A stretch of 64,000 nt of DNA from Eledone cirrhosa (taxonomy: Eukaryota), in NCBI GenBank assembly GCA_964016885.1, contig OZ024742.1, positions 191,828,001 through 191,892,000 on the forward strand. The letters are read 5' to 3'. Every line of letters begins with the position of its first letter. The stretch's first letter is position 1. Of the stretch, positions 6,250 to 56,133 are shown piece by piece. The position numbers were made by a program, and so were the translations under genes. Under the pieces are notes generated by a model. It made no database searches and was not told the DNA's origin. It was given only the letters and a program-made list of their open reading frames with translations.

Positions 6250-6960
6250 AGATATTGTTATATTTGGGGAGGGTCATATTTGCGTAATATTGCCAGAATT
6301 AATAACAGAACACACTCACTGTTTGGTTGGTTTTCGCTTCTCGCTGTCTTTTATATATATATATCTGCGATCTAACTTACTCATATATATATGAAAGACG
6401 TAAAATAAGAAAATTATAAAAATTAACTTACTTACTAAAATTTCACTCCAACTAATTAGTTTCTGAAAGGGAATAAACATGGTTTCCGAATGGAACACAT
6501 GGAGAAGGCCTTTCGTCATCAGGGAAGTCTATTCTCAGCTAAGTTCCCAAGCAATGCGTGGACACAGGGAACTTATACAAAAATAATTCAGTGGATGGAA
6601 AAAAAGCAAGCGAGGTCTAAGTTCCAAGACACTGAAAATATCACTGCCTACTTGATCGGTGGCAAATTCAAAAGAATCAATCACGTGACATCGAGGTTAA
6701 TCAGTGAGGAGTGGGGTGTTAAGAAGACAGTAGCCGAACTATTACTATGAACTATAGTAATAGTTTTGACACATTTTTGCTCAACAAAATAATTTGGAGA
6801 TAATTATAAAGAATTAGTATATCTACCAACATATATACACAGATGCATACCTATGCTAGCAAATATATAGGTTTTGTCTTAGTAAATTGTGGTTCAATGC
6901 AAGGGGATGCAGAACAATTATATGAAAGACGTAAAAGAAGAGAATTATAAAAGTTAACTT
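6250..6960 (-). mobile_element. Non-coding HHR-bearing repeat unit (~532-bp period), retrozyme/pLTR-like
   Basis: Homologous to 54153-54822. ATATGAAAGACGTAAAA recurs about 530 bp apart. (TA)n lies on both sides. Confidence 0.75.
6445..6528 (-). ncRNA. Type I hammerhead ribozyme
   Basis: Minus strand: acttcc CTGATGA c GAAAGG..CCTTTC a GAAA ctaattag TT ggagt. Palindromic stem III; covaries with the 54-kb copies. Confidence 0.8.
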
Positions 6961-6974
6961 ATATATATATATAT

Positions 6975-9356: not shown

Positions 9357-9359
<3 letters not shown>

Positions 9360-9760
9360 AAATATTAAACAAATAATGAACAAACAATTCCTTATATTAA
9401 ACAAAAAAAGTTCACTATTTAACGATCGTTTCTAGGGCATATATGTGTTATAATTGGTATGCATATTTAACAGATCTATGTACAAAATTATACAAAATTA
9501 TACAAATTATCAAGATTAAATATACATACCTAACTCATATATACGCCGTCTTCAGAAATTTCTGAAGACGGCGTATATATGAGTTAGGTATGTATATTTA
9601 ATCTTGATAATTTGTATAATTTTGTATAATTTTGTACATAGATCTGTTAAATATGCATACCAATTATAACACATATATGCCCTAGAAACGATCGTTAAAT
9701 AGTGAACTTTTTTTGTTTAATATAAGGAATTGTTTGTTCATTATTTGTTTAATATTTTAT
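9357..9760. repeat. 404-bp spacerless palindrome
   Basis: Centre TTCAGAAA|TTTCTGAA at 9558/9559. No mismatch seen by eye between the arms out to ATAAAATATT/AATATTTTAT. Confidence 0.92.
9558..9700 (+). ncRNA. Type I HHR with ~115-nt stem II domain (mirror copy on - strand at 9417-9559)
   Basis: attt CTGAAGA c GGCGTATAT...ATATATGCC cta GAAA cgatcg TT aaat. Confidence 0.65.
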
Positions 9761-12065: not shown

Positions 12066-12363
12066 GTGAAAGAGTGTAAAATAACATGGTCAACAGTACA
12101 AAAAGGGTTTTATTTATAGTATTAACAATTCACAACATACTAGTGTACGTCTGTATTCATATATGTATTTATGTATACATACTTATATTTAAGTAATAGC
12201 CATACTAAGAGTGAGAAATGAAATTTCATTGTTTTCCATTTATCGTTTTCGGTACATCCGGCCGACTAACTCACTAGATATGCAAATTTGGCTGCTCAGC
12301 CGTTAATATGCATAAGGAAAATATATACTCTCAAACGTTCAATCATCTGACAGGAAGGTATAC

Positions 12364-12402
12364 GATGCTGACGATAGCTAATAATCTAGAAAATAGTTCA
12401 TC
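12364..12402 (+). ncRNA. Minimal type I HHR
   Basis: gatg CTGACGA TAG ctaataat CTA GAAA atag TT catc. Confidence 0.65.
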
Positions 12403-12799
12403 ATTCCTTAGTCAGTGTTGAACCAGAAGTTAACGATGGTTGCCGAACACTGTACGGCTACTAATTCGGGCTGTTTGTTTACAAACAAACCGAACCTTAT
12501 AATAAATGTTCGGTAAACCCATACGTACATATATATATATATGTGTGCATGTATGTATATATATATATACATACTAGTGTACGTCTGTATACATATATGT
12601 ATGTACGTATACATACTTATATTTAAGTATCAGCCGTTCTAAGAGTGAGAAATGAAATTTCATTTTTTTTTTTCATTTATCGTTTTCGGTACACCCGGCC
12701 GACTAACTCGCTCGATATGCAATGTATGCTGCTCAGCCGTTAATATGCATAAGGAAAGTATATACTTTCAAACGTTCAACCGACTGATAGGAATAATAC

Positions 12800-12838
12800 G
12801 ATTCTGATGACAGCTATTAAGCGAGAAACTAGTTCACC
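12800..12838 (+). ncRNA. Minimal type I HHR (second unit; stem I partly decayed)
   Basis: gatt CTGATGA ca GCT atta AGC ga GAAA ctag TT cacc. Confidence 0.55.
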
Positions 12839-13063
12839 GTTCCTTTGTCAGCGTTGAACAATATGGCAACGATAGTTGCCGAACACTGTACGGCTACTAA
12901 TTCGGGCTGTTTGTTTACAAACAAACCGATCATTATAATAAATGTTCAGTAAACACATACGTACATATATATATATGTGTGTGCATGTGTGTATGTATAT
13001 ACATACTGGTGTACGTCTGTATACATATATATATATATATATATATGTACGTGTACAAACTTG

Positions 13064-15859: not shown

Positions 15860-16892
15860 TCACTTTTATGATTTATTATTGTTCATTTAGCTTGAGTTGG
15901 AATTTATCAATAACATTATTTTCTTTGATTTTTCTCTTGATTTCACTTAGGCTGTGTAATTTGAAGAATGGAAATATTATAAATATTTTCTGACCACATG
16001 TTGCTAGATGTTTACTTAGGGGTATCTGACGGACATTTGTGTCTCTGATTTGCTGTCGGTGCACCCGTGCTCGTTCCGATAGTGCATTTCCAGTTTGACT
16101 GACATATAGTTCTTCACAATTCTGGCATTTAATGCAGTAAATTAGATTTCTGATTTTGCAGTTCATATTTGCATTTGGGAATATTTTTCCAGTTTTTGCG
16201 TTCATTGACCGGTATGTATGGAATGACATGTGCCACATCGACTATCATTGCATTTAGATACAGTGAATGATTGGTCTTTGTGGTTAAGGTCAAACTTTGT
16301 TAGAAATTTGGTTAGAAATTGCTTCAAATTTTTCGGCTCTCTTTTACTAATAGTCAAAGATCGGTCTGTGATTAAGCCTTTTCATTCATTACTTTGAGCA
16401 ATGATAGGTAGGTTTGCTTTGGCAGTGTTGAAGATAATCTGGTGACATGGGTTGTGTGTCATTATAAATGGTATGACCAGTTGTTGGTTTCTTCTTCCTT
16501 GGGTTGTCCTAAGTTGTTGTGTAGGTATTTTATAGCCCGCTGTATGCCATTTTCAATAAGTAGAGTTGGGCATTTTTGTTTGAGCAAACATTCTCTCAGT
16601 TCTGTTAGGCGTTTGTTCCTGGTATTCGTATCTTCTACAATGGTACAAATTCTTCTGGGTAGGCAGTATGGGATGTTGCGTTTTGTATGAGGTGGATGGC
16701 ACGACTTAAAATTCAGATATTGATGGGTGTCTTTGTGTTTATAATATATATCCGTGGTAATGGTGGTGTCGTTTTTGATTACCATTATATCTAGGAATGG
16801 TAATTTGGTACTACTCATCTCTTTTGGGAATTGGAGAGATGGGTGTAGGTTATTCAGGAGGATATTGAACTCATCCGGAGTATCTAGAGATT
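15860..16892 (-). mobile_element. Neptune-like PLE family B 3' portion (RT thumb + GIY-YIG), decayed
   Basis: LPFLDI..TDIYYK..YLNFKSCHPPHTKRNIPY; NLIYCIKCQNCEELYVSQTGNALSERARVHRQQI..HL..C. Confidence 0.88.
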
Positions 16893-16894
16893 CG

Positions 16895-17178
16895 GTCCAG
16901 GAACGGCGTGACAGTCGCTTAAATATTCGAAAATACCTCCGTTTCGCTCAAATTTCCGCCTTCTCAGCTCTAGCTCCCACATTTTTCAACCGATTTCGTT
17001 CAAATTCGAAACTCCTTCCCCCAGCATGCCCCTTCGATAAAGGTCATCACCACCCTCCCCTGCATGGCCTGTGTGTGGGCATAGATGAGTCATCGAGAAG
17101 CAGTCGCTAAGATCAACACCTATTCATCAAAGCAGATATTATTTTACCTACCCATGCAACGCTGGGTACTGCTGCTAG
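16895..17178 (+). mobile_element. Non-autonomous Helitron 3' fragment
   Basis: Subterminal hairpin CCCATGC-AAC-GCTGGG followed by a CTAG|T end. Homologous to 42345-42780 (-). Confidence 0.75.
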
Positions 17179-20760: not shown

Positions 20761-20852
20761 CATACACTATATAATGTTTATATATATATATACATATAGT
20801 GTGTGTGTGTTTGTATATATATATATATATATATGTTACACCTCTATTCTTT

Positions 20853-20909
<57 letters not shown>

Positions 20910-20913
20910 TATA

Positions 20914-20973
<60 letters not shown>

Positions 20974-20977
20974 TATA

Positions 20978-21045
<68 letters not shown>

Positions 21046-21089
21046 ATATATTTAAAAGAATAGAGGTGTAACACACAAGTTATGATATA

Positions 21090-24304: not shown

Positions 24305-25045
24305 ATTGTTATACTTTGGGAGGGTCATGTTGTCAATAAGAATCACACACCCAAGTTGCTTTCACTCCAATGTATTATAAATAAAATTATAAATTTCCGG
24401 TTGGTTGGCTGGTTCCACAACCGGACGGTTGTTCATATATTGTCAAAGTTCTTTCGTCACACATTATGTGACCTCTTCATTGACTGGGGATGCTTTTCTT
24501 TCTTTTGTGCCTCTCCTTTGTTTTGTCCTACGCCATCTTGTTTTTCTGTGTGCTGTTTGCTTAGTTTGTGCATGTGTTACAGCCAGGTGTCTGTGTGTGT
24601 TTTTATTTGTTTATTTATTTGTTTATTTACATGATACTGGTTGGTTGTTAGTTCTATGTGTGTGTGTTTTCATTTTGTCCTTAATTGTAAGTTGTTATGT
24701 TGCTATTCTATTCATGTTTTCTATTTAATTTTGGTTGGAGTTCATTTATGTTTATTGCCTCTGTGATTTGTCTAAACATTGCGTATTTTCTGTGTGTATA
24801 TTTTATTTGTATTTCTATGTTCTCTAATTTGCCCTTATGTTCTATTTTTGCATGTTGGTGGAGTACTGATGATTCTTTTCTATCTTGAAGCTCTCGCCAG
24901 TGTTCATTTAATCGTTCTCCTATACTACGAGCTGTCTCACTTATGTACACTATATTCTTATCTTTACATTGTCCTTCGGTACATATTATGCTATATACTA
25001 TGTTTCTAGTGTTACAGTTAATATGGGGGCTAAGTTTACATATAT
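24305..25045 (-). mobile_element. PLE 3' fragment: GIY-YIG endonuclease + 3' UTR
   Basis: CNTRNIVYSIICTEGQC..VYISETARSIGERLNEH..HQHAKIEH..RQITEA..QPKLN, stop at 24708. Confidence 0.8.
24442..24484 (-). ncRNA. Minimal type I HHR relic in PLE 3' UTR
   Basis: gtca aTGAAGA g GTCAC ataatgt GTGAC GAAA gaac TT tgac. C3 is mutated. Confidence 0.55.
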
Positions 25046-25199
25046 ACATGTATATGGAATGAGAGTAAGAAGAAAGCAAGAACGGGACGAGGGGGGGTTC
25101 CTCGTCAGTTGTCATCTGGGGGTCTCGGATATTTCAACGCTTTAAAGACGATACATCTATCCATATATATAAATATGTTGCTTCACCATTTTGTTTGTT

Positions 25200-25375
25200 T
25201 ACACCTGCGTCCCCTTTATTTACGTGTCCCAACGACTTTTTTTAGCTGTTGTTCGCACCAACCAGAGGTATATGGTCTTTAAAGCGATGAAATGCCTATG
25301 ATGGTTGGAAGATCACTGATGAAGGACAAACTTTTTTCATATGTAACCCAATTGCGACTCCGCAGCGCCCTTATT

Positions 25376-25457
<82 letters not shown>

Positions 25458-25625
25458 AAAAAATGGGGAGAAGAATACTGCTGGTTGCACATGGATAACA
25501 TGTAATAAAATAAGTCCCTCATCAGTGATTTGCCGACGATCATAGATATTTCATTGCATTAAAAATCATATACCTCACGTCGGTGCAATAATAACTAAAT
25601 TAAGTTATTAGGACAATTAAAACGC
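25200..25625. repeat. Diverged inverted repeat pair converging on (TA)n, each arm containing ATCACTGATGA(A/G)GGAC
   Basis: 25225-25340 versus the reverse complement of 25500-25615. Confidence 0.6.
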
Positions 25626-25749
25626 GTAAAGCGAGTGAAACAAGATAACAACAAAGAGGATAGCTAACCGTAGAAGGAAGGGAACAAGCTTCATAGTTAT
25701 TATGTTAGCATAAGCTAGGTGAATATATGAGCGCTTAGAAAAAAGACCT

Positions 25750-25819
<70 letters not shown>

Positions 25820-25825
<6 letters not shown>

Positions 25826-26029
25826 TAACAGATTAACGTTTAAGCAAAGAATCGCTGCTTTCACCCTTAACGGGATCTGCTGAAACTGTTAAGGGTGAAA
25901 GCAGCGATTCTTTGCTTAAACTTTAATCTGTTATTTTAATAAATATTTGCTGTACGGTTCTTATATATTTGATATATATTTATCCTTATCGAGCCCTCTT
26001 TGGATTTTAGTCTTCAAATTTATTATTAT

Positions 26030-26035
<6 letters not shown>
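25820..26035. mobile_element. Second fold-back mini-insertion of the family A pLTR end
   Basis: Inverted arms with junction at ~25887; the right arm continues into the sequence seen at 1-95. Confidence 0.8.
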
Positions 26036-26099
<64 letters not shown>

Positions 26100-26565
26100 A
26101 ATCTGTGTGGCTATGATTACGTTTGTGTGTTTGTTTATTTCCCGTAAAAAGAAATCGAGGACATAAGTACCAGGCTTGGAAAAAATCACTGGGGTTGATG
26201 TATTTGACTAAATTAAGTGGCTACGCTAACCTGACCACAGTCTAATTACTGGAACTAGTAAAATAATATATGTTAATCTCATCGTTTCAATTTACTCCAC
26301 TGATATGTTTGGTATTGGAGGTAATGGTATTGTTTTTGTTTATAGTGTTGGTGGAGTAGGTAATAGTGTTGATTTCATTCGTGGCGGTGTTATTGCATGT
26401 AAGGTAAACAGATTTCATGTTGCCGGTGTTGGTGTTATTGTTTGTGTTGGTGTTAATGGTAATATTGATGCTGGTAGGGGAGTGATTAATGCAGTTGCTT
26501 TTGTTGGTGGTGGTGGTGGTGGAGAAGGAATTGGTGTTGGTGGTGATAGTATTGATGGTGTTGTT

Positions 26566-26615
26566 TTAATTGTTGTTGGTGCTGGTAGTAGAATAAGTAA
26601 TGTCATTGTTGTTTA

Positions 26616-26646
<31 letters not shown>

Positions 26647-29600
26647 GGTGGAGGAATTGGTGTTGGTAGTCGTGGTGGAGGAATTGGTGGTGGTCGTCGT
26701 GGTGGAGGAGTTGGTGGTGGTCGTCCTGGTAGAGGAGTTGGTGGTGGTAGTCATGGTGGAAGTATTGGTGGTGGTAGTCGTGGTGGAGGAATTGGTGGTG
26801 GTCGTCGTTGTGGAGGAATTGGTGGTGGTAGTCGTGGTGGAGGAATTTGTGGTGGTCGTCGTGGTGGAGGAATTGGTGGTGGTAGTCGTGGTGGAGGAAT
26901 TGGTGGTGGTCGTCGTTGTGGAGGAATTTGTGGTGGTCGTCGTGGTGGAGGAATTGGTGGTGGTAGTCGTGTTGGAGGAATTGGTGGTGGTAGTCGTGGT
27001 GGAGGACTTGGTGGTGGTAGTCGTGGTGGAGGAATTGGTGGTGGTAGTCGTTGTGGAGGAATTGGTGGTGGTAGTCGTGGTGGAAGTATTAGTGGTGGTC
27101 GTCGTGGTGGAGGAATTTGTGGTGGTCGTCGTGGTGGAGGAGTTGGTGGTGGTCGTCCTGGTAGAGGAGTTGGTGGTGGTAGTCATGGTGGAAGTATTGG
27201 TGGTAGTAGTCGTGGTGGAGGAATTGGTGGTGGTCGTCGTTGTGGAGGAATTGGTGGTGGTAGTCGTGGTGGAGGATTTTGTGGTGGTCGTCGTGGTGGA
27301 GGAATTGGTGGTGGTAGTCGTGGTGGAGGAATTGGTGGTGGTAGTCATGGTGGAGGAATTGGTGGTGGTCGTCGTTGTGGAGGAATTTGTGGTGGTCGTC
27401 GTGGTGGAGGAATTGGTGGTGGTAGTCGTGTTGGAGGAATTGGTGGTGGTAGTCGTGGTGGAGGATTTGGTGGTGGTAGTCGTGGTGGAGGAATTGGTGG
27501 TGGTAGTCGTTGTGGAAGTATTAGTGGTGGTCGTCGTGGTGGAGGAATTGGTGGTGGTAGTCGTGGTGGAGGAATTGGTGGTGCTCGTCGTTGTGGAGGA
27601 ATTGGTGGTGGTAGTCGTGGTGGAGGAATTTGTGGTGGTCGTCGTGGTGGAGGAATTGGTGGTGGTAGTCGTGTTGGAGGAATTGGTGGTGGTAGTCGTG
27701 GTGGAGGATTTGGTGGTGGTAGTCGTGGTGGAGGAATTGGTGGTGCTCGTCGTTGTGGAGGAATTGGTGGTGGTAGTCGTGGTGGAGGAATTTGTGGTGG
27801 TCGTCGTGGTGGAGGACTTGGTGGTGGTAGTCGTGGTGGAGGAATTGGTGGTGGTAGTCGTTGTGGAGGAATTGGTGGTGGTAGTCGTGGTGGAGGAGTT
27901 GGTGGTGGTAGTCGTGGTGGAGGAATTGGTGGTGTTAGTCGTGGTGGAGGAGTTGGTGGTGGTAGTCGTGTTGGAGGAATTGGTGGTGGTAGTCGTGGTG
28001 GAGGAGTTGGTGGTGGTAGTCGTGGTGGAGGAATTGGTGGTGGTAGTCGTGGTGGAGGAGTTGGTGGTGGTAGTCGTTGTGGAGGAATTGGTGGTGGTAG
28101 TCGTGGTGGAGGAATTGGTGGTGGTCGTCGGGGTGGAGGAGTTGGTGGTGGTAGTCATGGTGGAGGAATTGGTGGTGGTCGTCGTGGTGGAGGAATTGGT
28201 GGTGGTCGTCGGGGTGGAGGAGTTGGTGGTGGTAGTCATGGTGGAAGTATTGGTGGTGGTAGTCGTGGTGGAGGAATTGGTGGTGCTCGTCGTGGTGGAG
28301 GAATTGGTGGTGGTCGTCGCGGTGGAGGAATTGGTGGTGGTAGTCGTGGTGGAGGAATTGGTGGTGGTAGTCGTGGTGGAGGAATTGGTGGTGGTAGTCG
28401 TGTTGGAGGAATTGGTGGTGGTAGTCGTGGTGGAGGATTTGGTGGTGGTAGTCGTGGTGGAGGAATTGGTGGTGGTAGTCGTTGTGGAAGTATTAGTGGT
28501 GGTCGTCGTGGTGGAGGAATTGGTGGTGGTAGTCGTGGTGGAGGAATTGGTGGTGCTCGTCGTTGTGGAGGAATTGGTGGTGGTAGTCGTGGTGGAGGAA
28601 TTTGTGGTGGTCGTCGTGGTGGAGGAATTGGTGGTGGTAGTCGTGTTGGAGGAATTGGTGGTGGTAGTCGTGGTGGAGGATTTGGTGGTGGTAGTCGTGG
28701 TGGAGGAATTGGTGGTGCTCGTCGTTGTGGAGGAATTGGTGGTGGTAGTCGTGGTGGAGGAATTTGTGGTGGTCGTCGTGGTGGAGGAATTGGTGGTGGT
28801 AGTCGTGGTGGAGGAATTGGTGGTGGTAGTCGTGTTGGAGGAATTGGTGGTGGTAGTCGTGGTGGAGGAGTTGGTGGTGGTAGTCGTGTTGGAGGAATTG
28901 GTGGTGGTAGTCGTGGTGGAGGAGTTGGTGGTGGTAGTCGTGGTGGAGGAATTGGTGGTGTTAGTCGTGGTGGAGGAGTTGGTGGTGGTAGTCGTGTTGG
29001 AGGAATTGGTGGTGGTAGTCGTGGTGGAGGAGTTGGTGGTGGTAGTCGTGGTGGAGGAATTGGTGGTGGTAGTCGTGGTGGAGGAGTTGGTGGTGGTAGT
29101 CGTTGTGGAGGAATTGGTGGTGGTAGTCGTGGTGGAGGAATTGGTGGTGGTCGTCGGGGTGGAGGAGTTGGTGGTGGTAGTCATGGTGGAGGAATTGGTG
29201 GTGGTCGTCGTGGTGGAGGAATTGGTGGTGGTCGTCGGGGTGGAGGAGTTGGTGGTGGTAGTCATGGTGGAAGTATTGGTGGTGGTAGTCGTGGTGGAGG
29301 AATTGGTGGTGGTCGTCGTGGTGGAGGAATTGGTGGTGGTCGTCGCGGTGGAGGAATTGGTGGTGGTAGTCGTGGTGGAGGAATTGGTGGTGGTAGTCGT
29401 GGTGGAGGAATTGGTGGTGGTAGTCGTGGTGGAGGAATTGGTGGTGGTCGTCGTGGTGGAGGAGGAGTTGGTGGTGGTAGTCGTGGTGGAGGAGTTGGTG
29501 GTGGTCGTCGTGGTGGTGGAATTGGTGGTGGTCGTCGTGGTGGAGGAATTGGTGGTGGTCGTCGTGGTGGAGGAATTGGTGGTGGTCGTCGTGGTGGAGG

Positions 29601-29946
29601 AGTTGGTGGTGGTCGTCGTGGTGGAGGAATTGGTGGTGGTAGTCGTGGTGGAGGAATTGGTGGTGGTCGTCGTGGTGGAGGAGTTGGTGGTGGTAGTCGT
29701 GGTGGAGGAATTGGTGGTGCTCGTCGTTGTGGAGGAGTTGGTGGTGGTAGTCGTGGTGGAGGAATTGGTGGTGGTCGTCGTGGTGGAGGAATTGGTGGTG
29801 GTCGTCGTGGTGGAGGAGTTGGTGTTGCCGTTAGTTATGATTTTGAAATTATTGTTATTGCCGTTGGCGAAGGTGGTGGTGAAGTTGTGGTGGTAATAGT
29901 CGTAATGTTGATTTTTTGTTGATTTATTATTTGTAGATGTTTGCAA
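26566..29946 (-). CDS. Possible mucin-like Thr/Ser-rich repeat exon (NSSTTTTTT)n; may be non-coding
   Basis: 1126-codon open frame; the commonest unit variants are synonymous in this frame. No signal peptide or linked exons seen, and the annotated start is TTG. Confidence 0.3.
26650..29825. repeat. 27-bp minisatellite, ~117 units, consensus GGAGGAATTGGTGGTGGTAGTCGTGGT
   Basis: Direct reading. Higher-order duplication: the rare CGC variant occurs at 28318 and 29344, 1026 bp (38 units) apart. Confidence 0.97.
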
Positions 29947-30454
29947 AATTTAGGAGGCGGTTATAAGAAGATCAAATTTTAATTTGATAGTTTCTTCTAG
30001 TCTGAACCCTATTTTAAGAACTATATATCAGTTACGGTCATTAAGCAGAATAGTGTGTCCTTTAATGAAGTTACAGAAATGTAGACAACAAGTATAGGGC
30101 ACAGAGAAGGTATGTAGAGTGGTACAGAGAACGTTAAACGCCTTCTGATACTGTTGTTTTTTGTATTCATTATAATCATTATTTTAGCTGGCGTCGAACG
30201 TTATAAATAAGTGAAGATTTATATCTAAAAAGATTGCCACCTCCCTTGTAAAGCAAAATCATCTTTCACACATTTATATCTGTATGTGTATGCGTGTGTA
30301 TGTATATATGTCTATGTATATGTATGTGTGCATATAGATTGTTATGTATGTATAAATATGTGTGTGTATATATGAGCGTGTATATATATATATATACATG
30401 CTCACACACACATATATTTATACATATATATAAATCTATATACACACACACACA

Positions 30455-30539
<85 letters not shown>

Positions 30540-30586
30540 AATCAAATAAAAACAAAGAACAAGTTCCTTATATTAAAAAAATCATC

Positions 30587-30711
30587 ATTTTACGATCGTT
30601 TCTATGATGTATATGTGTTTTGGCATGTATATCATATAGATCTATGTAAACATATTACAAATTATGAGACGAAATATACATACTTTCACATATATATCTG
30701 TCTTCAGAAAT
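30587..30711 (-). ncRNA. Type I HHR with long stem II domain (same family as 9558-9700)
   Basis: attt CTGAAGA ca GATATATATG...CATATACATC ata GAAA cgatcg TA aaat. Confidence 0.65.
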
Positions 30712-30787
30712 ATATATATATATCAGAAAGGGTGTGGTAAAATACCAAGTAGACTATAACACACCAGGGTACTCGATACTTGGGGTA

Positions 30788-30852
30788 GCTGAGCTCCGGC
30801 CGTTTCGACAGCTAGATCCGGATCTAGTCGTCGAAACGGTCGGAACTCAGCC
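30788..30852. repeat. ~65-bp GC-rich near-perfect palindrome
   Basis: GCTGAGCTCCGGCCGTTTCGACAGCTAGATC|CGGATCTAGTCGTCGAAACGGTCGGAACTCAGC. Confidence 0.85.
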
Positions 30853-30875
30853 TTCAGGGTCCTGAATCTGTTCAT

Positions 30876-34128
<3,253 letters not shown>

Positions 34129-34132
34129 TTTT

Positions 34133-34175
<43 letters not shown>

Positions 34176-34184
34176 ATATTATAT

Positions 34185-34212
<28 letters not shown>

Positions 34213-34232
<20 letters not shown>

Positions 34233-34418
34233 AATAATTGTTTCTACTTTTGGCACAAGGCCAGCAATTACCCTAGTACATTACTGGTACTTTATTTTAT
34301 CGACCCCGTAATGATGAAAGGCAAAGTTAACCTCGGCGGGATTTGAACTCAGATCATAAAGGGATGTAACTATGCTGGAAAGCATGTCTGACCCTCTACC
34401 GATACTGCCAATTCACCA
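34213..34418 (-). mobile_element. SINE family 1
   Basis: Full-length match to consensus. Confidence 0.88.
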
Positions 34419-35092
34419 TATAGTGTATATAAATGTGTGTCCGTATATATATATATACATATATATGTGTGTGTGCCTATATTTTTTTTATCTTAGTTAC
34501 TATTTATAAAGGGTGCTGCTGATGATACCGCTGCCATAGTGCTTACTATTGTTGGTGTTATACATGTTGCAGATACTGGTGTTGTTGATGCTGATGTCAT
34601 TGTGCTTATATCAGAGCACACTTGTGTTTTGAACAAATACAAGTTCAGTTGAATACTGTTGCCACACATGTGATATCTAAAATGTTTACCCTCAAATATG
34701 CTGACCGTTTAAGATGTCAATTTAGGTCGGAAATCATGTCATGCGTTCCCAGATTTACCTCGATCAAGAACTGCAGCAAACTTCTGATCATCACTCCAGA
34801 ATTCACCTCTTTTTACACATTTTGATCACTAACCAGCCCAAGTAAGCGTAATAAAGATCATTTCTGCCTATGACTTGACAGAGCAATGCTGTTGTTGTTG
34901 GAGTTGTTTGTAGTAACGATGGTGGTGTACCGAATGAAGAGGGAAACTGCTTGTATATGTTAGCCTTCCTTGATGACAGCGACATTATTGTGATTGCTGT
35001 TGATCTGTCGTAGAATTTACACTAATAGTTTCAGTAATCTTTCCGAAAGAGTTGCTGAATTTGTTGTCTGTCTTCTTGTGAATGCTATTCTG

Positions 35093-35093
35093 G

Positions 35094-35176
<83 letters not shown>
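35093..35176. repeat. (GTT)n microsatellite
   Basis: Direct reading. Confidence 0.95.
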
Positions 35177-35179
<3 letters not shown>

Positions 35180-35314
35180 ATCGTTGATGTTATTGTGGAT
35201 TTTGTCGGTATTTCTGTAGCTGTTGCTGTTGCAAGTGGTGTTGCTACTGCTGTTGATGTTGATTTTAAATTTTGTATGTTATGTTTAGAGACCCCAGTAC
35301 CTGAAAGTTACTTT

Positions 35315-35912
35315 ATTTAATCAACCTTGAAATGATGAAGGGCAAATCTGAACCCAGCGACATTCGAATTCAGAATGTAAAGTACCTGAACATATAAAAC
35401 CACAAAATATTTTGTCAGATCACCTTGCGTTTTATCATTCCACCACATTTATCTTCACTGTTAATGGTTTCGGATTTGTAACAACGCCAACAATTCGTGG
35501 TGGTGGGGTTGGAGAAAGTTGATTAAATCGAACCCAGTGCGTTACTGGTACTTTATTTTATGGACCCCATAATGATGAAAGGTAAACTAACCCCGGCTAT
35601 ATTTGAACTCAGAATGTAAAGAGCCGTAACTATATGCCGCAAATCATGTTGTCCGACGCTCCACCGATACTACTAATCCCTTGCCTTTTTAACTTCACTG
35701 ATAATGATTTCTTATATAGGTACAAGGTCGGCAATTTGGGGGGAGGGGAAATTCGATTAAAGTGCTTGACTGGTACTTTATTTTATCGACTCCGTAAGGA
35801 TGAAAGGCTAAGTTAATTTCGGCGGGATTTGAACTCAGATCATAAAGGACCGTAACTGTATACTGCAAAGCATGGTGTCTGACTCTCTACTGATACTACC
35901 ACTCCACCGCCT
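35315..35912 (-). mobile_element. Three adjacent SINE family 1-related copies
   Basis: Copies at ~35315-35450 (degenerate), 35465-35670 and 35705-35912. The last is flanked by the direct repeat TTTTTAACTTCACTGATAATG. Confidence 0.8.
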
Positions 35913-36199
35913 TTTTAACTTCACTGATAATGCTATTGGATTGCATATTTATAGAACAGCAGTTAATAACAACGTTTATTGGCACAAATATATTAGATAA
36001 TGAATATCAATACAATATATGTTTTACTCCAGTATAATCTTGATTATTGCCCCTGTGTATTCTAGATCTTTGCTTCATTTTAATCGAGATTTGTCCTGCC
36101 ATACAATATATAATCTTTAGAAATAAGGAAAAAAACAAAGTTATTGTTAGCACTGTTTGAAATCAAAACACCGAGAGAATATTTCACAAATATAGAACT

Positions 36200-36200
36200 A

Positions 36201-36245
<45 letters not shown>

Positions 36246-36390
36246 CAGCAGCAGCAGCAGTAGTAGTAGTATCAACATCATCATCAGTAGTAGTAGTAGT
36301 AGTAGTAGCAGGAGCAGCAGCAGCAGTAGTAGTATTATTATTATTATTATTATTAGTAGTAGTAGTAGTAGTAGTAGTAGTGTAGTAGTA
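36200..36390. repeat. Compound (TAG)n/(CAG)n/(TAT)n microsatellite
   Basis: Direct reading. Confidence 0.95.
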
Positions 36391-36801
36391 AAGAAGAAGG
36401 AAAAAATGTCTACGACTGCGAGAAGAAAAACTAACAGGACATTTAGTAGAAAATTAAAAGCCAACATTTCGAGCAGCAGTAATATAACAGAAACAGAAAG
36501 ATAGAAACAAAGAAAGATAGATAGACCGAAAGAAATCATTGTTTCTTTTTAAATTGTAAGTTAATTTGATATGTCACATTGTGGCGCCACCGACGTTTAA
36601 GCTAAGAGCCATGGTATGTTTAGAGATGGGTGATAAAAAAACTGAGTCATCGCTTAAAGTAAAAAGGAGCTAACATAGAAAATAATCGACTAAGTCTAAT
36701 ACAGTCTGTAGTAAATCTTGAAGAAATGATATTTGTGAAGTTTTATTGCGGATTGTAATTTACCTTATATGGATATGGCTTGCCGGTTGATATAACGAGA
36801 G

Positions 36802-36995
36802 TTAAGCACGGTGGATTGGCAGTATCGGTAGAAGGTCGGACGCCATGCTTTGCAGCAAAGAGTTACGGACCTTTATGGTCTAAGTTCAAATCCCACCGAG
36901 GTTAACTTTGCCTTTCATCCTTACGGGGTCGATTAAATAAAGTACCAGTAATACACTGGGATAATTGCTGGCTTTGTGTCAAAAGTAGAAACAAT
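36802..36995 (+). mobile_element. SINE family 1 with TSD
   Basis: TATAACGAGAG direct repeat at 36791 and 36996. Confidence 0.88.
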
Positions 36996-37347
36996 TATAA
37001 CGAGAGAAAGTGTAGGAATGATATAGGGATGGTAGGGGTGATACAAGGAGGATGGCGAAAGATTAGAGGACATCGCTATTTCTCCAAATTTAAGATCCCA
37101 GAGATTAAACAATACTATTTAGACACACAAGTAAATATTGACATTCCCAATGGAGACATAACAACCCAGGAAATCTATTCTGCAACGTGGCGGTGATGAT
37201 GATTATCGGAGTCCCGGCTAAATTGACCAGCATGTTGTTAATTAGGTTTCTCGCCCGCACAAGTGTGATGATGAGGATAACGACGACATACACGACTATG
37301 AAGATAATTATAAGCGTAATGGTAGCACATTATTCTTGAATTGGCAG

Positions 37348-37720
37348 GCGAGGCGGTGATTGGCAGTATCGGTAGAAAGTCGGACGCCATGCTTTGTAGC
37401 AAAGAGTTACGGACCTTTATAGTCTTTGTTCAAATCCCGCCGAAGTTAACTTTGCCTTTCATCATTACGGGGTCGATAACATAAAGTACCATTAATACAC
37501 TGGTTAATTGCTGTCCTTGTGCCAAAAGAAGAAACAATTATACTTGGATTTGCAGTATCAGAAGAGTGTCAGACACCATGCTTAGAGTTATGGCCCTTTA
37601 CGTTATGAGTTCAAATCCCACCGAGGTTAACTTTGCCTTTCATCCTTACGGGGTTGATAATATAAAGCACCAGTAATGCACTGTGGTAATTGCTGGCCTT
37701 GTGCCAAAAGTAGAAATAAT
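37348..37720 (+). mobile_element. Head-to-tail dimer of SINE family 1
   Basis: Copies at 37348-37540 and 37545-37720. Confidence 0.85.
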
Positions 37721-38027
37721 TACACTTATTCCAGCTCCTGCATATGAAAACGCCGGAGGTTCCACGATTCTGTCTATAAAGAATTATTAAAATTATATTG
37801 GAGACAAAATCAACATTATAGTGGAGGCAATATCTAGGTTATACTGGATATCTAGATTACAATCGGCGTTAAATCATAATTATACTCGTAGTAATAACTA
37901 CGTTTTGTTGGAGTAAAATCAGAATTATGGTGGAGGTAAGATCGAGATCATACTAGAGCTAAACTTATCATCGTATTAGGAACAATGTCTAGATTTTACT
38001 GGAGGTTAAATCTAAATAATGATTTCT

Positions 38028-38225
38028 ACTATAGCCACAAGGCCATCAATTTGGGGGGATGGAAAAGTTGATTAAGTCAACCTTAATGTATCACGGATAC
38101 ATTATTTTATCGACCCCGTAAGGATGAAAGACAAAGCTAACCTCGGTGGGATATGGACACGGAACGTAAAGGGCCTTAACATCATGCCGTGAAGCAGGGT
38201 GTCCGACGCTCTACCGATACTTCCA
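38028..38225 (-). mobile_element. SINE family 1, diverged
   Basis: Match to consensus on the minus strand. Confidence 0.75.
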
Positions 38226-38658
38226 AAATAATGCTGATAGTAAGATCTAGGTTTTACTGAAGTATTATCAAGATTATATAAAGTCTGTGTCTAAGTTAGA
38301 AGCTCATCAAGCTGATGTTTGTTCCTGTTTCATGTGTTGTTTGGAAACGAGGAAATTCCTGTTCCATATAACATGAATTTCAAAAATTATATTGTTTGAA
38401 AATAATTTTCATTACATTTTAGTTAATCATGTCAGAACATTAAGATGAATGTGTGTTTGAAAGTATATAGTAAAGAAGGATAACAGAACGAACAAACCAA
38501 CGGGAGATTGTCACAAACATTACTGTTTTTCCGATTTGTCACTCATTTTTCTTTGCAATTGTCATTTATTCTGCTCCCCTTATTTTAAGACTCCGCCCTC
38601 AGCTATCCCATCATCCCACGATACGTATTGATTATTATTTTATTCTCTGGCTACTGAT

Positions 38659-38769
<111 letters not shown>

Positions 38770-39221
38770 GTGTGTGTGTGCGTGTGCGTGTGTGTGTGTG
38801 TGTATAAGTGTATAATCAGGATAGAGCAAGTTTAAAACTAGTTAGACCGAGTTACCTAACAGAGAACGCCATACGGCTAAGCCCTTGCCGTCTCAATAGC
38901 TACTTCCTCGCGCTCACACATAAACACACACAAACACACACACACACACACACAAAGAATGTGTATAAAATATACGAGGTTGGGCTATAAAATATACACA
39001 TTTCTGATGTTTAGTCATGTAAGCATGCCACAGTGATACATGGCAGTGCGAGTTTAATTCGTTCATTGACCAAGCTCGTTTCGTTTTACGATTTACTCGT
39101 TTTACAAATAAATATTCTACATTGAAATTAATTGAAATATAAATAATCCGTTCCAGTCCCCCCAAACAAACCTCAAATAATTTTTGATGGGTTTTCTTCC
39201 ACTAATTATTATAAAGGAACG

Positions 39222-39430
39222 ATCGATTTCGTCAAATCGGACCGAGGGAACAATGTTTCCGTTGGTCTTTCCAATTGCTAATACTATCTATCGGTCGCAA
39301 CTCCAGGTAGAAGGAGCAACGTGAAATAAAGTGTCTTGCTCAAGGACATAACGCATCGCCTGGTCCAGGAATCGAACTCACAACCTTACGATTGCGAATC
39401 CAATTCTCTAACCACTCAGCCACACGCCTT
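39222..39430 (-). mobile_element. tRNA-derived SINE family 2
   Basis: Head GGCGTGTGGCTGAGTGG (box A), GAGTTCGATTCC (box B), then GTCCTTGAGCAAGACACTT. Second copy at 50790-51005. Confidence 0.85.
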
Positions 39431-39917
39431 CACTATTATTATAAAATAATAGCATAAAACACACAAAACTAAAAAATACAAAACACACTGGGAAAACACA
39501 ATAGGGATGCTGCCACAACGAGATGAACATGTGAAGTGAACGAGCACAGGGTGCACTTGTTGAGAGAGCATGAGCTCAGCACCGATTAGAGGTCGCTTGC
39601 ATAAAACTCGCTCGTTCAATGGATTTCCACTCGTAGTACAGGACAATAATTCGCGCGAGTTTCAGATTGTACTACACATTACTCCTACAATGGTGCACTC
39701 ATACTGCGAAGTTCTACTGTATATTGAAAATAATAAGACACTTAAGCGATTTATGGACCTAGTTGTGTTATTGATGGGCAGATTTTTAATATATGCATAT
39801 ATATATATATGGATATATATATATATATATATATACAATACATAAACAGAGAATGCCCTAAGCAATACTCCGACCAACTCCATCTCACTCAACAAACATT
39901 AGGATATACTTAAGTAT

Positions 39918-39959
<42 letters not shown>

Positions 39960-40300
39960 TTACAATAATCAAAGTTCAGTTTAAGTCACTTATTTGCTTA
40001 CAATTGTTTCCTCCAAACCGAGGTTTGGATTCTTCGGAGCAACTATTTACTGATCTATAATATACTTGACCTCCTTTTCAACCCAAGAGACACATAAAAC
40101 ATATGCGCATATTGATCAACAGTAGGGTGACATTCATCAAATGATATAGCATGGCAACTGATGTTATTACATTGAGCTATTTATCTTACTGGTAATAGGA
40201 TAGTAATTAATGACTATCTTTCACTATTTAGGGTTTGTATATATAATATATTACCATTAAAGGTTTTATTACATACATAACCATAAATAGTACCCTTAAT

Positions 40301-40492: not shown

Positions 40493-41117
40493 TGGTTGTT
40501 CTATGGTATTAATTTGGCATAGGTGAAACCGTCGGTAAAAGCAAATGGAATAAGTAAATATTATAAAATATATTTTTTTATTTATTTAAAAAAAATTGTT
40601 TGAATCTTGCTTGCTCCGCTTATTTCAATTTTATATTTCAGGTATGTCAAATCAATACCATAGAACAACCACTGTATCATAGACACCCTATATATTTCCA
40701 TGGGTACTTAGTACCTGTGGGGATATTAACCTCTTTTAATGTTCTCCGTTATGTAGAGGAGAAATCTATTGTTTTATTTAGCTGCTATTTTTAGTGGCGT
40801 ATTAGACAACACGTCTATGTTTACTTCCGCTTCTACTAAGGGTTAGTTCATGCATAGGACAAGTTTACGGCCCCTTTCGATCCTTTGCTAGCTGGCAGAT
40901 GTCAATATATTTTCCCGTTCCCGGGACTTTTGTCATAGGTAAGGAAAATGGTCTCTGATGAACCAAACATTTCAATTGGATATCCCTATGGATCTCCAAT
41001 CTTGTGTGAGGTGAAACCGTCGGTAAAAGCAAATGGATTAGGTAAATATTTAAATTATATTTTTTAATTTATTTTAAAAAATTGTTTGAATCTTGCTTGA
41101 TCCGCTTATTTCAATTT

Positions 41118-41118
<1 letters not shown>
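40490..41118 (+). mobile_element. Non-coding HHR-bearing unit, 488-bp period (1.2-mer), with short 5' inversion, in (TA)n
   Basis: 40521-40635 is repeated at 41009-41118; 40490-40521 is the inverse of ~40643-40675. Confidence 0.75.
40951..41030 (+). ncRNA. Type I HHR with extended stem II
   Basis: gtct CTGATGA ACC..ATTGGATATCC ctat GGATCTCCAAT..GGT GAAA CCG t CGG TA aaagc. Stem I is imperfect. Confidence 0.65.
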
Positions 41119-41195
<77 letters not shown>

Positions 41196-43707: not shown

Positions 43708-45197
43708 ATAAATATAAAAATAATACATACTAACCTTTCTAGTTAATTCGGTTTCCTCCTCTTCTATTATCATGCGCTCGTTTTGAACTTCCAAACATAT
43801 TTCAGCATCAGTTAAATCACCATAGCATGGCTCGCTGACATCACAATCGATGAATTCGGGTTCCAATTAAGGAATATTGGCATCATCACTTTCAATTAAT
43901 ACATCGTTCAACTCGACTTCAATTTCATTGTGAAAACTCGCCCGCCTTTTTAAAGCAATTGACAATCGTCATGGGTTTGAGAAGAAAAAGAGAGCGCTAC
44001 AACATTTGCATAGACAAAAAACATGAACGAACTTTTCACATTCACTTACGCTCTTCCCATTTTCTATTGCCACCAATAACTTTCGCACAATTTGTGTACG
44101 ATAATGCACTTTCACAGCATGTATTATTCCCTTATCAAGGGGCTGAATTAATGAGGTCGTATTTGGAGGTAAAAATACGATTTTTACGTTTTCAAAATGA
44201 TTTTCAATTTTATGACAGCTTGCATTGTCTGCAAAAATAATGATTTTTCGTTTTTGGCCACGCATTTTTTTGTCAAATTGTGCAATAATTTCCAGCAAAA
44301 TGTGTTTCGTCATCCAAGCTTTTGAATTACTGTAATGTGCTAGAGATGCTTTTTTATTCAGCATAAAACGAGGTCGTTGAAATTTTCCGATGACAAACGC
44401 GTGTTTTTCAGTTCCATCGGAATTGACTGCTAAGAGAATGGTGAGTCTGTCTTTTGCGGTTTTTCTACCCGTTGGATTTGTTCCGGAGACAGCTAGTGTA
44501 CCAGATGGAAGTGCTTTTAAAAAAAGACCAGATTAATCGAAATTATACACATCCTTTGATGAATAGCCGTCAATTTCCTTGGTATAAATTGTTTCTATCC
44601 AATGTTTGACACTTAAGTGTTCAGCGACAGCTCTTTCACCATGCACTTTCATGAATTTTATATTTTCACGCTTTTTAAGTCTCTCTAACCAACCATGAGA
44701 TGGTTCAAAATCAGGAATTCCCAAAGTTTGTGCAAATATTTTTGCCTTTTCAAGCATCATAGGGCCGCCGTTGATCGGAACATTTTGATTTCTCATTTGT
44801 TGAAACCATTTTATGAGTGCATCTTCCAATCCTTGATGATCAACTCATCTTCTACGTTTCGCATGCAAATTCACATTTGATAGAGTCAATTTTCAATATT
44901 TTTTCTCCTTTTTTTTTTCATCCTGGAGATGGCTGCTTGACTGCAATTGAATTTATTAGACAATTCATTTTGTGACTTGGCGGATTTCAATTCATCCTAA
45001 ATAGCAATTATTTTAGTAAAGCAGAGCGTTTCAAAGACATTTTTATGACACAATGAATTATTATTTTTGTATTTGCATATATTAAACTTTAAATTGCTTT
45101 TAGAATGGTTGTATAAATGATATCATCGCATTTCATTTTGAATTGTTTTAAAATGGTTATGTTACATTATAAGACCAATTTACTTTACCGTATTCAT

Positions 45198-49908: not shown

Positions 49909-50100
49909 CAGGGTCTCCCCCAAAATTGTATATACACTTCAATAGCATTCTAATAAATATTGCCTGTACTGATAATCAAAGCGTGTATACATTTTTGGGA
50001 GACCCTGTATATATGTGTATATATATACAGGGTCTCCCAAAAATGTATACACGCTTTGATTATCAGTACAGGCAATATTTATTAGAATGCTATTGAAGTG

Positions 50101-50104
<4 letters not shown>
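49909..50104. mobile_element. Tc1/mariner-type MITE (99 bp) plus adjacent inverted partial copy
   Basis: TA|CAGGGTCTCCC...GGGAGACCCTG|TA at 49909-50007; second copy at 50028-50104. Confidence 0.75.
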
Positions 50105-50131
<27 letters not shown>

Positions 50132-53546: not shown

Positions 53547-54063
53547 TATATAAATGAAAGGTATAGAAAACACTGCAGCGAAAAGCCAACAAATATATAT
53601 ATATATTTATATAAACACACATATATGAAAAAACAACCTGAGCACCTCCCCCTTGTTTGAAGAACTTTGTAACGCGAACTGGCGCGAAATTTATTATACT
53701 TATTGACCAAATACGGGGGCGAAATTTATTACTCTTATTGACCAACAAATCAAATTACTTCTCTAAAAACATGGCGTTTCGAGCCACTTTTTTCCATATA
53801 AAACAAGTAACATTCAAATACCAACCAGATGTGTGAAAAACCACAGACCCTCCATCTCAACTCTACTTTTGAAAAGAAGAAGAACTGCGAAACCGGTAAA
53901 GGAACCAAATAAATATATATATTTTTTTAAAAATAAGACATCAGTTACATTTTCGATTTCATCTTTTTTTCTTTATACTTTTACTCGTGTAGGACACCGG
54001 TTATTTTTCATTTTGTAAAAAACCTCTCTTTCCAATATATATATATATACATACATACATACA

Positions 54064-54158
<95 letters not shown>

Positions 54159-54206
54159 GACGTAAAATAAGAAAATTTTAAAATTAACTTACTTACTAAA
54201 ATTTTC

Positions 54207-54288
54207 ACTCCAACTAATTAGTTTCTGTAAGGGAATAAATATAGTTACGCACCGCAAATATAGAGAAATCCTTACGTCATCAGGGAGT
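54207..54288 (-). ncRNA. Type I hammerhead ribozyme
   Basis: actcc CTGATGA c GTAAGG..CCTTAC a GAAA ctaattag TT ggagt. Confidence 0.85.
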
Positions 54289-54738
54289 CTATTCTCAGCT
54301 AAGTTCCCAGGCAATGCGCGGACACTAGGAACCCATATAAAAATAATAATTCAGTGGATGGAAAAAAGCAAGCGGGGACTAGATTCCAGGGCACTGAAAA
54401 AATTCACTGCCTACTTGGTCAGTGGCAAATTCTAAAGAATCAATCACGTGACACTGAGGTTAATCAGTGAGGAGTGGAGTGGTGATAAGACAAGAGCCTA
54501 ACTACTACCATGAACCATAGCAGTAAATTTCGGCAAGTTTTGCTCAACAAATAATTTGGAGATAAATATATAGAAATAGTATATCTACCAGCATATGTAT
54601 ACAGATGTATACTCATGCTAGCAAATATATATGTTATGTCTTAGTACCTTTGTGGTTCTATTCAAGGGGATGCAGAACAAGTATATGAAAGACGTAAAAT
54701 AAGAAAATTTTAAAATTAACTTACTTACTAAAATATTC

Positions 54739-54820
54739 ACTCCAACTAATTAGTTTCTATAAGGGAATAAATATAGTTACGCAACGCAACTATAGAGAAA
54801 TCCTTACGTCATCAGGGAGT
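54739..54820 (-). ncRNA. Type I hammerhead ribozyme (tandem partner)
   Basis: Same fold 532 bp upstream; inner hairpin TATAGTTGCG ttg CGTAACTATA. Confidence 0.85.
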
Positions 54821-54951
54821 CTACAATTGTTCTGCATCCCTTTGCATAGAACCAGAAAGGTACTAAGACATAACATATACATTTGCTAGCATGAGTATAC
54901 ATCTGTATACATATGTTGGTAGATATACTAATTCTCTCTCTATATATATTG

Positions 54952-55019: not shown

Positions 55020-55444
55020 TAGAGAAGATAACACACGAAGAGTGAGAGCGTGTGTGTTTATCAATATACAGGGAAAACTACCAGTGTATGGAATCTATAA
55101 ACTACGAAAGGTGAGTTAGACGGATAATAATTAGAAATATAAATCAAAATGAATTTACCCACCTCTATAACTATGTATCACACACGTACAAAACCAAAGA
55201 GATTTGTTTCGCCAAAACATTGGGGAATGGAACGAAAATACTCAGTTTCATCAGCGTGCTTTAAGGGAATACATTCCAGACGACTCTAAGAGATCTTAAG
55301 ATAACTGCCTTGCAACACGTGTTAGAGAGAAGTGAATGTGTGCGAGAGACAGTAAACTTGTGGCCTGGGTGGAATGAGCGGCTAGAAATCGCAGCCCCCT
55401 TGATAAACACACTCTCTATCTCTCTCACGCTCTCTCTCTCTCAC

Positions 55445-55482
<38 letters not shown>

Positions 55483-56053
55483 TCTCTATCTATCTTTCTC
55501 TCTCTCTATCTCTCTCTCTTTTTCTCGGTGTTATATTTTCTACATATTATATTTGAAGAGCTCAAGATTACTTTTCCTTTGAGCTCATAATTTACAGGGA
55601 CTAACGCGAGTCTATGACCCCGTTAATTTATTTTGATATATTGCCCCTTATAACACTCTTTTCGCTCTCGCTCTTTGGTAGAGCAATCTTCTTTGAGTGG
55701 TCTTGGGCTGCGATTTATATCCGCTCATTCGACCCAGGCCACTAGTTTACTATCTCTCGCACCTATTCACTTCTCTCTACCACATGTTGCAAGGCAGTTA
55801 TCTTAAGTTCTGTTAGAATCGTCTGGAATGTATTCCCTTAAAGTACGCTGATGAAACTGAGTGTTTTCGTTCCATTCACCAATCTTTGGGCAAAGCAAAT
55901 CTCTTTGGGTTTGTACGTGTGTGATATATAGTTATAGTTGTGGGTAAATTCATTTTGATTTATATTTTTAATCATTATGCGTCTACATCACCTTTCATAG
56001 ATTATAGATTCCATACACTGGTGGTTTTCCCTATATATTGGTAAATACGCACA

Positions 56054-56133
<80 letters not shown>

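Follow-up and report, generated by a model that had tools for sequence, protein, structure and literature searches.

The element lies in a TA-rich genome of 3.0 Gb, within a 64,000-nt window (the whole stretch of DNA analysed). As originally predicted, a strict motif scan places two type I hammerhead motifs on the minus strand exactly 532 nt apart. Their CTGATGA cores are at 54815 and 54283, and cleavage is predicted to follow 54744 and 54212, respectively; across both strands of the 64 kb, the scan returned only these cores and one at 6522. The insertion reads, in order, (TA)n, a 674-nt minus-strand arm composed of unit positions 453-532, 1-532 and 1-62, an inverted plus-strand arm, (CT)4 and (AT)n, and within it 54150-54291 repeats 54682-54823 at 97% identity. 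Between the predicted cleavage sites the motif scan delimits one complete 532-nt unit (54212..54743, minus strand), the would-be monomer or circle, whose predicted fold has a z-score of -5.0 against 100 shuffles. Hammerhead 1 (54739..54820, minus strand, core 54815) is a type I motif of the minimal kind found in Penelope-like elements (PLEs), with stem I ACUCC/GGAGU, a 51-nt stem II segment, GAAA at 54757-54754, a palindromic stem III and a GUU cleavage triplet ending at 54744; it carries a private G-U at 10.1-11.1, a pair that is G-C in 217 of the 229 motifs of the family. Hammerhead 2 (54207..54288, minus strand) has the same layout with G10.1-C11.1 and predicted cleavage after 54212.

The terminal 62 nt (54150..54211, minus strand) run up to a putative RT start site, A, where CTTTC is followed by ATATA blending into the (TA)n/(TACA)n target tract (54035..54154). 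At the other end, the inverted segment that had been proposed is present: 54825..54933 (plus strand) is unit ~62-172 reversed, about 107 nt, and corresponds to a "tail" between site A and a second site, B, at which it stops. It is followed by (CT)4 (54934..54941, plus strand), probably the product of RT reiteration on a CUCU template, and then by (AT)n to 54949, so that the predicted TA flanks exist on both sides. Within the tail, directly before the internal copy of site B, lies a 22-bp hairpin (54580..54629, minus strand) with compensatory changes across subfamilies. A conserved GTCACGTGATTG block (54441..54452, minus strand) is E-box-like and may have a promoter role. No open reading frame of at least 100 aa overlaps the element, in agreement with the prediction, and the longest ATG frame in the window unit is 50 aa. 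Adjoining the element is an inverted pair (55039-56067) with a hammerhead-like motif (core 55254, minus strand).

A diverged second locus had been noted to share the period. It belongs to the same family with a period of 531 (6391..6961, minus strand; subfamily 2, 571 nt, 85% identical to the window unit) and has an A end running into TA, but it holds one hammerhead (core 6522) rather than two. Units of similar size elsewhere in the window were likewise borne out as same-strand repeats at offsets of 434, 488 and 602, and at least one represents a further family: an unrelated 434-436-bp hammerhead unit (12135..13034, plus strand, cores 12368 and 12804) with 3,326 candidates genome-wide, the same hammerhead type (C..A around stem II, with the palindrome and GUU of the 532-nt family) and the same end pattern, in which inverted arms end at two sites 43 nt apart and run into (TA)n. 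A 5′ boundary of this family at position ~377 was discarded as a BLAST break at a TA run. Other hammerhead-like motifs occur at 40521-41122 (core 40955, plus strand, 488-bp period), 41745 (minus strand) and 24160 (minus strand). The flanks of six loci (L023, L070, L123, L138, L153 and L170) contain a further recurrent end whose hammerhead has a short stem II; it adjoins the same TA tracts and once stands behind a (GA)n run.

The family is abundant. An exact 20-mer spanning stem III and the cleavage site occurs in at least 9,366 copies genome-wide, against none for its reversed control, and searches of the genome with the window unit and the second locus gave 2,866 and 3,103 candidates, with 40 from each set scored. 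After removal of overlapping and duplicate loci, we analysed 126 non-overlapping loci: 40 similar to the window unit and 29 similar to the second locus, all 69 selected for their likeness to full-length queries, plus 57 from the 20-mer list in their order on contig 1, with the last three listed left out. These loci yielded 91 complete units of 478-571 nt, at most 28% apart, and the unit length stays at ~521-571 nt across that divergence. The median distance to the nearest other locus is 2.3%, and the window copy is likewise 2.3% away from the majority consensus of its subfamily. Assembled contigs from three runs of one sample, of unrecorded kind, show only many variant copies and so speak neither for nor against expression. 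Multimers lacking an ORF, which the prediction called for, exist as arrays of 2-6.5 units, and the window copy, with two consecutive complete hammerheads, itself has the form of a retrozyme multimer. In nine representative units read over the junction, the longest ATG frame is 27-69 aa. At three separate loci (L090, L091 and L156), the same unit fragment (462-532, 1-182) stands beside the same SINE-like repeat, possibly a composite that has spread jointly.

Both halves are present in 229 of 274 hammerhead motifs, and the core, GAAA, the palindrome and UH are all retained in 190 of the 229. Stem II is flanked by an extra C and an extra A (C..A in 224/229), the latter preceding GAAA; across subfamilies its second pair is variously U-A, A-U, C-G or G-C and its fifth G-C or U-A. 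Over 16 units, 96.6% of cells pair, against 31-51% in slid controls, and two-sided changes are seen in 13 of 69 pairs, including pairs of the tail hairpin and of a second stem inside stem II; because the subfamilies are not independent samples, these covariation counts, like the Fisher p-value, overstate the evidence. Predicted folds of six units have z-scores of -3.3 to -6.9. The description of the window hammerheads as intact holds by sequence only. Hammerhead 1 has the G-U at 10.1-11.1, and stem III is predicted to be unstable in the monomer, at +1.5 kcal/mol for the hairpin against -9.0 for the duplex of a dimer. The monomer is predicted to fold without stem III and not into the active form; with stem III stable between two motifs and unstable within one, activity would be expected to need a dimer.

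The layout is that of the minimal hammerheads of PLEs (PMC4209133), which share with the present motif an extra nucleotide between A9 and G10.1, G10.1-C11.1, a long helix II, a helix I of 4-5 bp and a palindromic 15.2-16.2/loop 3 that makes them dimer-dependent. The present motif differs from them in a second extra nucleotide (A) between C11.1 and G12 and in a helix II lengthened by an internal loop and the second covarying stem. It also departs from the canonical type I hammerhead, which has no insertion beside the core and gives an Rfam match: no hammerhead is among the eight Rfam matches on the element or among the 150 matches listed of 171 in the whole window, and the matches are microsatellite-driven miRNA noise. 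For comparison, the axolotl HHR_Amex2 has a U-U mismatch at the base of stem II (PMC7229834), and eight of nine Xenopus retrozyme dimers failed to cleave in vitro (bioRxiv 10.64898/2026.07.22.740005).

The ends of the insertions are regular. They fall at two fixed sites ~112 nt apart, A at unit ~57-62 and B at unit ~172-177, each of them TA-rich and blending into (TA)n. Among 62 simple two-ended loci, 59 pair an A end with a B end, the two facing outwards, three have two A ends and none has two B ends; the rest of the 126 comprise three complex loci, 56 with ends on a single strand and five with no detected end. The inverted arm, the two 3′ ends and the microsatellite target together make up the insertion signature of a non-autonomous PLE. 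Such a pattern is expected from the two internal RT start sites of a lizard PLE, which extends both target strands (PMC11167929), and in EN+ PLEs an inverted, 5′-truncated arm, a tail on one of the two inverted ends, two RT start sites and microsatellite targets have been described (PMC3846280; PMC8557442; PMC11167929). The 532-nt family differs from these in lacking an ORF, in a tail of ~112 nt rather than 30-40 nt, in templated repeat addition at B, and in start sites that are TA-rich and so homologous to the target, whereas the lizard PLE was primed without target homology (PMC11167929).

The arms also carry information on the template. Nearly all of them (163/187) traverse the cleavage site, which means that a cut linear monomer is not the template. 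The notion that the inverted arm always stops at site A was dropped, because 13 of the 80 B arms end at scattered positions short of the cleavage site. Among 178 arms, 22 have their 5′ end at unit 450-464, along the hammerhead's 5′ edge, where 8.0 would be expected; this window was chosen post hoc, and three of the loci in it share a flank type or position and are perhaps not independent. Such clustering is compatible with the start of a transcript and also with structure that stops the RT. Just past the cleavage site, a 4-nt repeat (11-22 nt beyond it, 54733-54722) differs between adjacent copies in ~30 of 70 arms, being lost from one of the two across subfamilies, whereas a 4-nt repeat used as control shows no change (139/139). 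This variation suggests RT stalling or jumping at the ribozyme. An A-to-C change at unit +9 (54735) recurs in 14 copies, mostly one per locus, and a stall, a jump or an RNA modification just 3′ of the cleavage site is a possible source of both the +9 and the +11 to +22 changes.

End patterns of the same design are found in coding PLEs of this genome. The window holds a broken copy (31035..34138, minus strand) of a young Neptune-like family encoding RT and GIY-YIG, with many 784-aa open frames elsewhere in the genome, whose A and B ends lie 38 nt apart and run into (TA)n; of 30 loci, all seven that show both ends have one A and one B. We regard this family as a candidate helper, sharing no sequence with the unit. 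Its 3′ region contained no CUGANGA core in the seven copies scanned. A repeated ~100-nt segment occurs in that region (L120-L140), with what we take to be E-box-, CCAAT- and E2F-like motifs. A second Neptune-like family (15876-16947, minus strand; L243-L272) has 775-aa frames, A and B ends ~45 nt apart, (CTAT)n reiteration at B and a pLTR with a minimal hammerhead, in which U..U surrounds stem II.

Taken together, these data support the original inference of a non-coding, hammerhead-bearing family mobilised by PLEs into (TA)n, with ends matching those of coding PLEs. Judged from the sequence, the 520-570-nt ORF-less tandem unit, with its high copy number and conserved hammerhead fold, is probably copied in trans by a Neptune-like RT/GIY-YIG protein. 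One could envision the following course. The unit would be transcribed, possibly from the E-box-like block, as an RNA of more than one unit. The PLE protein would then nick both strands of a (TA)n tract, as the lizard PLE (PMC11167929) and the insertion ends suggest, and one nicked end would prime at A (UAUA, ~60 nt past the cleavage site) and the other at B (UAUAU, ~175 nt past it). The outcome, seen in the DNA, is two head-to-head arms of variable 5′ length ending at A and B. The template may be either an uncleaved multimeric RNA or a re-ligated circle, with the uncleaved linear form somewhat favoured. The hammerhead is predicted to cut only as a dimer through its palindromic stem III, and such a cut could release a 532-nt monomer able to circularise. 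Counting against this course of events are the extra A before GAAA, the GUU triplet, the predicted inactive fold of the monomer, the Xenopus dimers that failed to cleave, the priming of the lizard PLE without target homology and the lack of any sequence shared between the unit and the three coding PLE families compared.

A classic rolling circle, in which dimeric cleavage yields abundant 532-nt circular RNA that the RT rounds as its main template, is a tentative alternative that we hold to be somewhat improbable. It would account well for a hammerhead fold and a unit length kept over 28% divergence, and circles have been shown for the retrozymes of coral, mussel and axolotl (PMC7229834). Tandem copies within one arm share locus variants, and there is no fixed difference between first and second copies across loci, nor between terminal and internal copies, and a diverged linear master was rejected on that ground. 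Two arrays (L032 and L050), with units 3.2-4.0% apart, as expected from independent ageing since insertion, look multimeric from the start. However, at three other loci (L033, L066 and L070) internal units share changes absent from the terminal copy, and a fourth array (L031) alternates X X Y X Y X, patterns that indicate DNA duplication after insertion. Because several arrays gained units later in this way, multimers are weaker evidence for rolling circles than they appear. The clustering of arm 5′ ends at the hammerhead edge also fits a transcript start, though equally an RT stop, and in the lizard PLE unprocessed RNA is the main substrate and cleavage is dispensable for insertion in vitro (PMC11167929).

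The preferred reading, copying in trans by a PLE protein, also bears on a second regularity, the (CT)n runs at B ends. Runs of 3-40 CT units occur at 26 of 33 B ends whose template has CTCT, whereas with other templates only four of 33 have them, and these four are the window copy (whose internal site has private changes), two ends with unparsed templates and a single true exception; a further 17 ends, for which no internal copy was found, stand outside this tally. Genome-wide, 243 exact B ends have five or more CT units, and 230 exact internal sites retain two. We infer that slippage of the RT on CUCU, as it starts at B, adds (AG)n, which is read as (CT)n in the insertion. The dependence of the runs on the CTCT template points to RT slippage, and reiteration at initiation is the simplest reading, with later DNA slippage perhaps lengthening the runs. 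In the second coding family of Neptune-like type, seven of 19 B ends have (CTAT)n/(CT)n.

It is unlikely that the runs owe nothing to the RT and instead reflect pre-existing (TA)n(GA)n compound targets or slippage of DNA after insertion. Microsatellites are very unstable in this genome, runs of 30-40 units may be later growth, and CT and TA run lengths are weakly correlated (rho 0.37, p 0.05). Apart from their dependence on the element's own template, however, the runs do not lengthen with divergence (rho -0.16, n = 28); internal CTCT copies remain at two units; A-end flanks run on into (GA)n in only four of 107 cases, two of these being the ends of other elements; and five or more CT units precede an (AT) run in only eight of 1,298 background instances. 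A fuller account would have the insertions record a telomerase-like step, in which the PLE RT repeatedly copies CUCU at B to give up to tens of repeats, together with two-strand priming at A and B and stalling or jumping of the RT in the hammerhead region, this last part resting on the 4-nt losses, the +9 change and the arm ends at the ribozyme's 5′ edge. We consider the chances of this combined account to be even.

The unit might, finally, be merely the pLTR of a coding PLE. Comparison with three coding PLE families (109 loci, as 30+19, 30 and 30) showed that it is the pLTR of none of them. They share no sequence with it, apart from copies of the unit in 0/30, 0/19, 1/30 and 1/30 of these loci, both in flanks; the Hydra-like ORFs of the window served solely as tblastn queries on family loci. 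Rather than a recurrent flanking of an RT/GIY-YIG ORF by the unit, we found two one-off junctions, both direct and without TA: in one (L163), a Neptune-like 3′ UTR, ~13 nt short of its A end, joins unit 398 on the same strand, and this junction is spanned by only one of 44 matches; in the other (L225), unit 48-197 runs into a GIY-YIG region. Template switching, nesting and later deletion all fit. That the unit is the detached pLTR of an unsampled coding PLE, its copies being 5′-truncated stumps and tandem pLTRs, is very improbable even with a hammerhead of the PLE minimal type (PMC4209133) and a comparison of three families where each search gave 25,000-40,000 protein candidates, because in arms longer than one unit more unit, not an ORF, lies upstream of the hammerhead, because none of the 57 loci picked by the hammerhead 20-mer alone has the unit flanking an ORF as a pLTR and the single Neptune-like junction is unique, and because the ORF-free period is kept in all nine lineages more than 7% divergent.

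Elements of this class have already been described, as non-LTR retrozymes or non-autonomous PLEs (PMC7229834; bioRxiv 10.64898/2026.07.22.740005), for which mobilisation by PLEs has been proposed. By those sequence criteria that could be tested, the 532-nt family is a member: a tandem unit with a type I hammerhead, no coding capacity, multimers and a conserved, self-paired structure. It resembles metazoan non-LTR retrozymes in that its tandem units lack an ORF and each contain one type I hammerhead, and in its low GC, its self-paired fold, a copy number in the thousands and a range from monomers to multimers; its 532 nt exceed the 150-450 bp of PMC7229834 and fall within the 51-972 bp of bioRxiv 10.64898/2026.07.22.740005. 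It differs from them in its PLE minimal hammerhead with a 51-nt stem II segment, in its many dispersed head-to-head copies with two fixed ends, which have no counterpart in the available accounts, and in having no homologous PLE pLTR among the three families compared. Non-coding PLE derivatives with pLTRs and head-to-tail multicopy insertions are also known from Chlamys MRC1 (PMC8557442). However, such non-autonomous elements usually have 3′ sequence in common with an autonomous family, and hammerheads are absent from most Chlamys, whereas the present family has a conserved hammerhead and no sequence-sharing partner was found among the three PLE families. The literature covered describes neither this family nor the addition of repeats, and the family may already be catalogued in Repbase, in Dfam or in the supplements of the retrozyme papers.

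The points of most interest are the rule that an A end is paired with a B end and the dependence of (CT)n on the template; the mechanistic signatures are unusually clear. Which enzyme moves animal retrozymes, and whether it copies a circle or a linear RNA, has been a matter of hypothesis in the retrozyme literature available to us; here the two-start-site signature of PLEs is visible at hundreds of ends, and the young intact Neptune-like ORFs nearby could be expressed, which makes the question of the mover testable in vitro with the 532-nt RNA. The template-dependent (CT)n suggests that the RTs of PLEs, which form the sister group of telomerase, reiterate their template to add repeats, and such addition would seed microsatellites in a TA-rich genome. 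Were the telomerase-like reading true, the genome itself would show directly that an animal retrozyme is mobilised by the machinery of PLEs, and by what steps.

Other repeats of the window include near-perfect palindromes of 180-400 bp at 9357-9760, 49929-50106 and 20834-21073, which are probably small inverted PLE-type insertions. A tandem array of 118 copies of a 27-bp repeat (26230-29949) lies in a minus-strand frame of 1,127 aa, rich in Thr, Ser and Asn and mucin-like, and a remnant of a DDE_1 (Pogo/Tigger-type) transposase occupies 43969-44844 on the minus strand.
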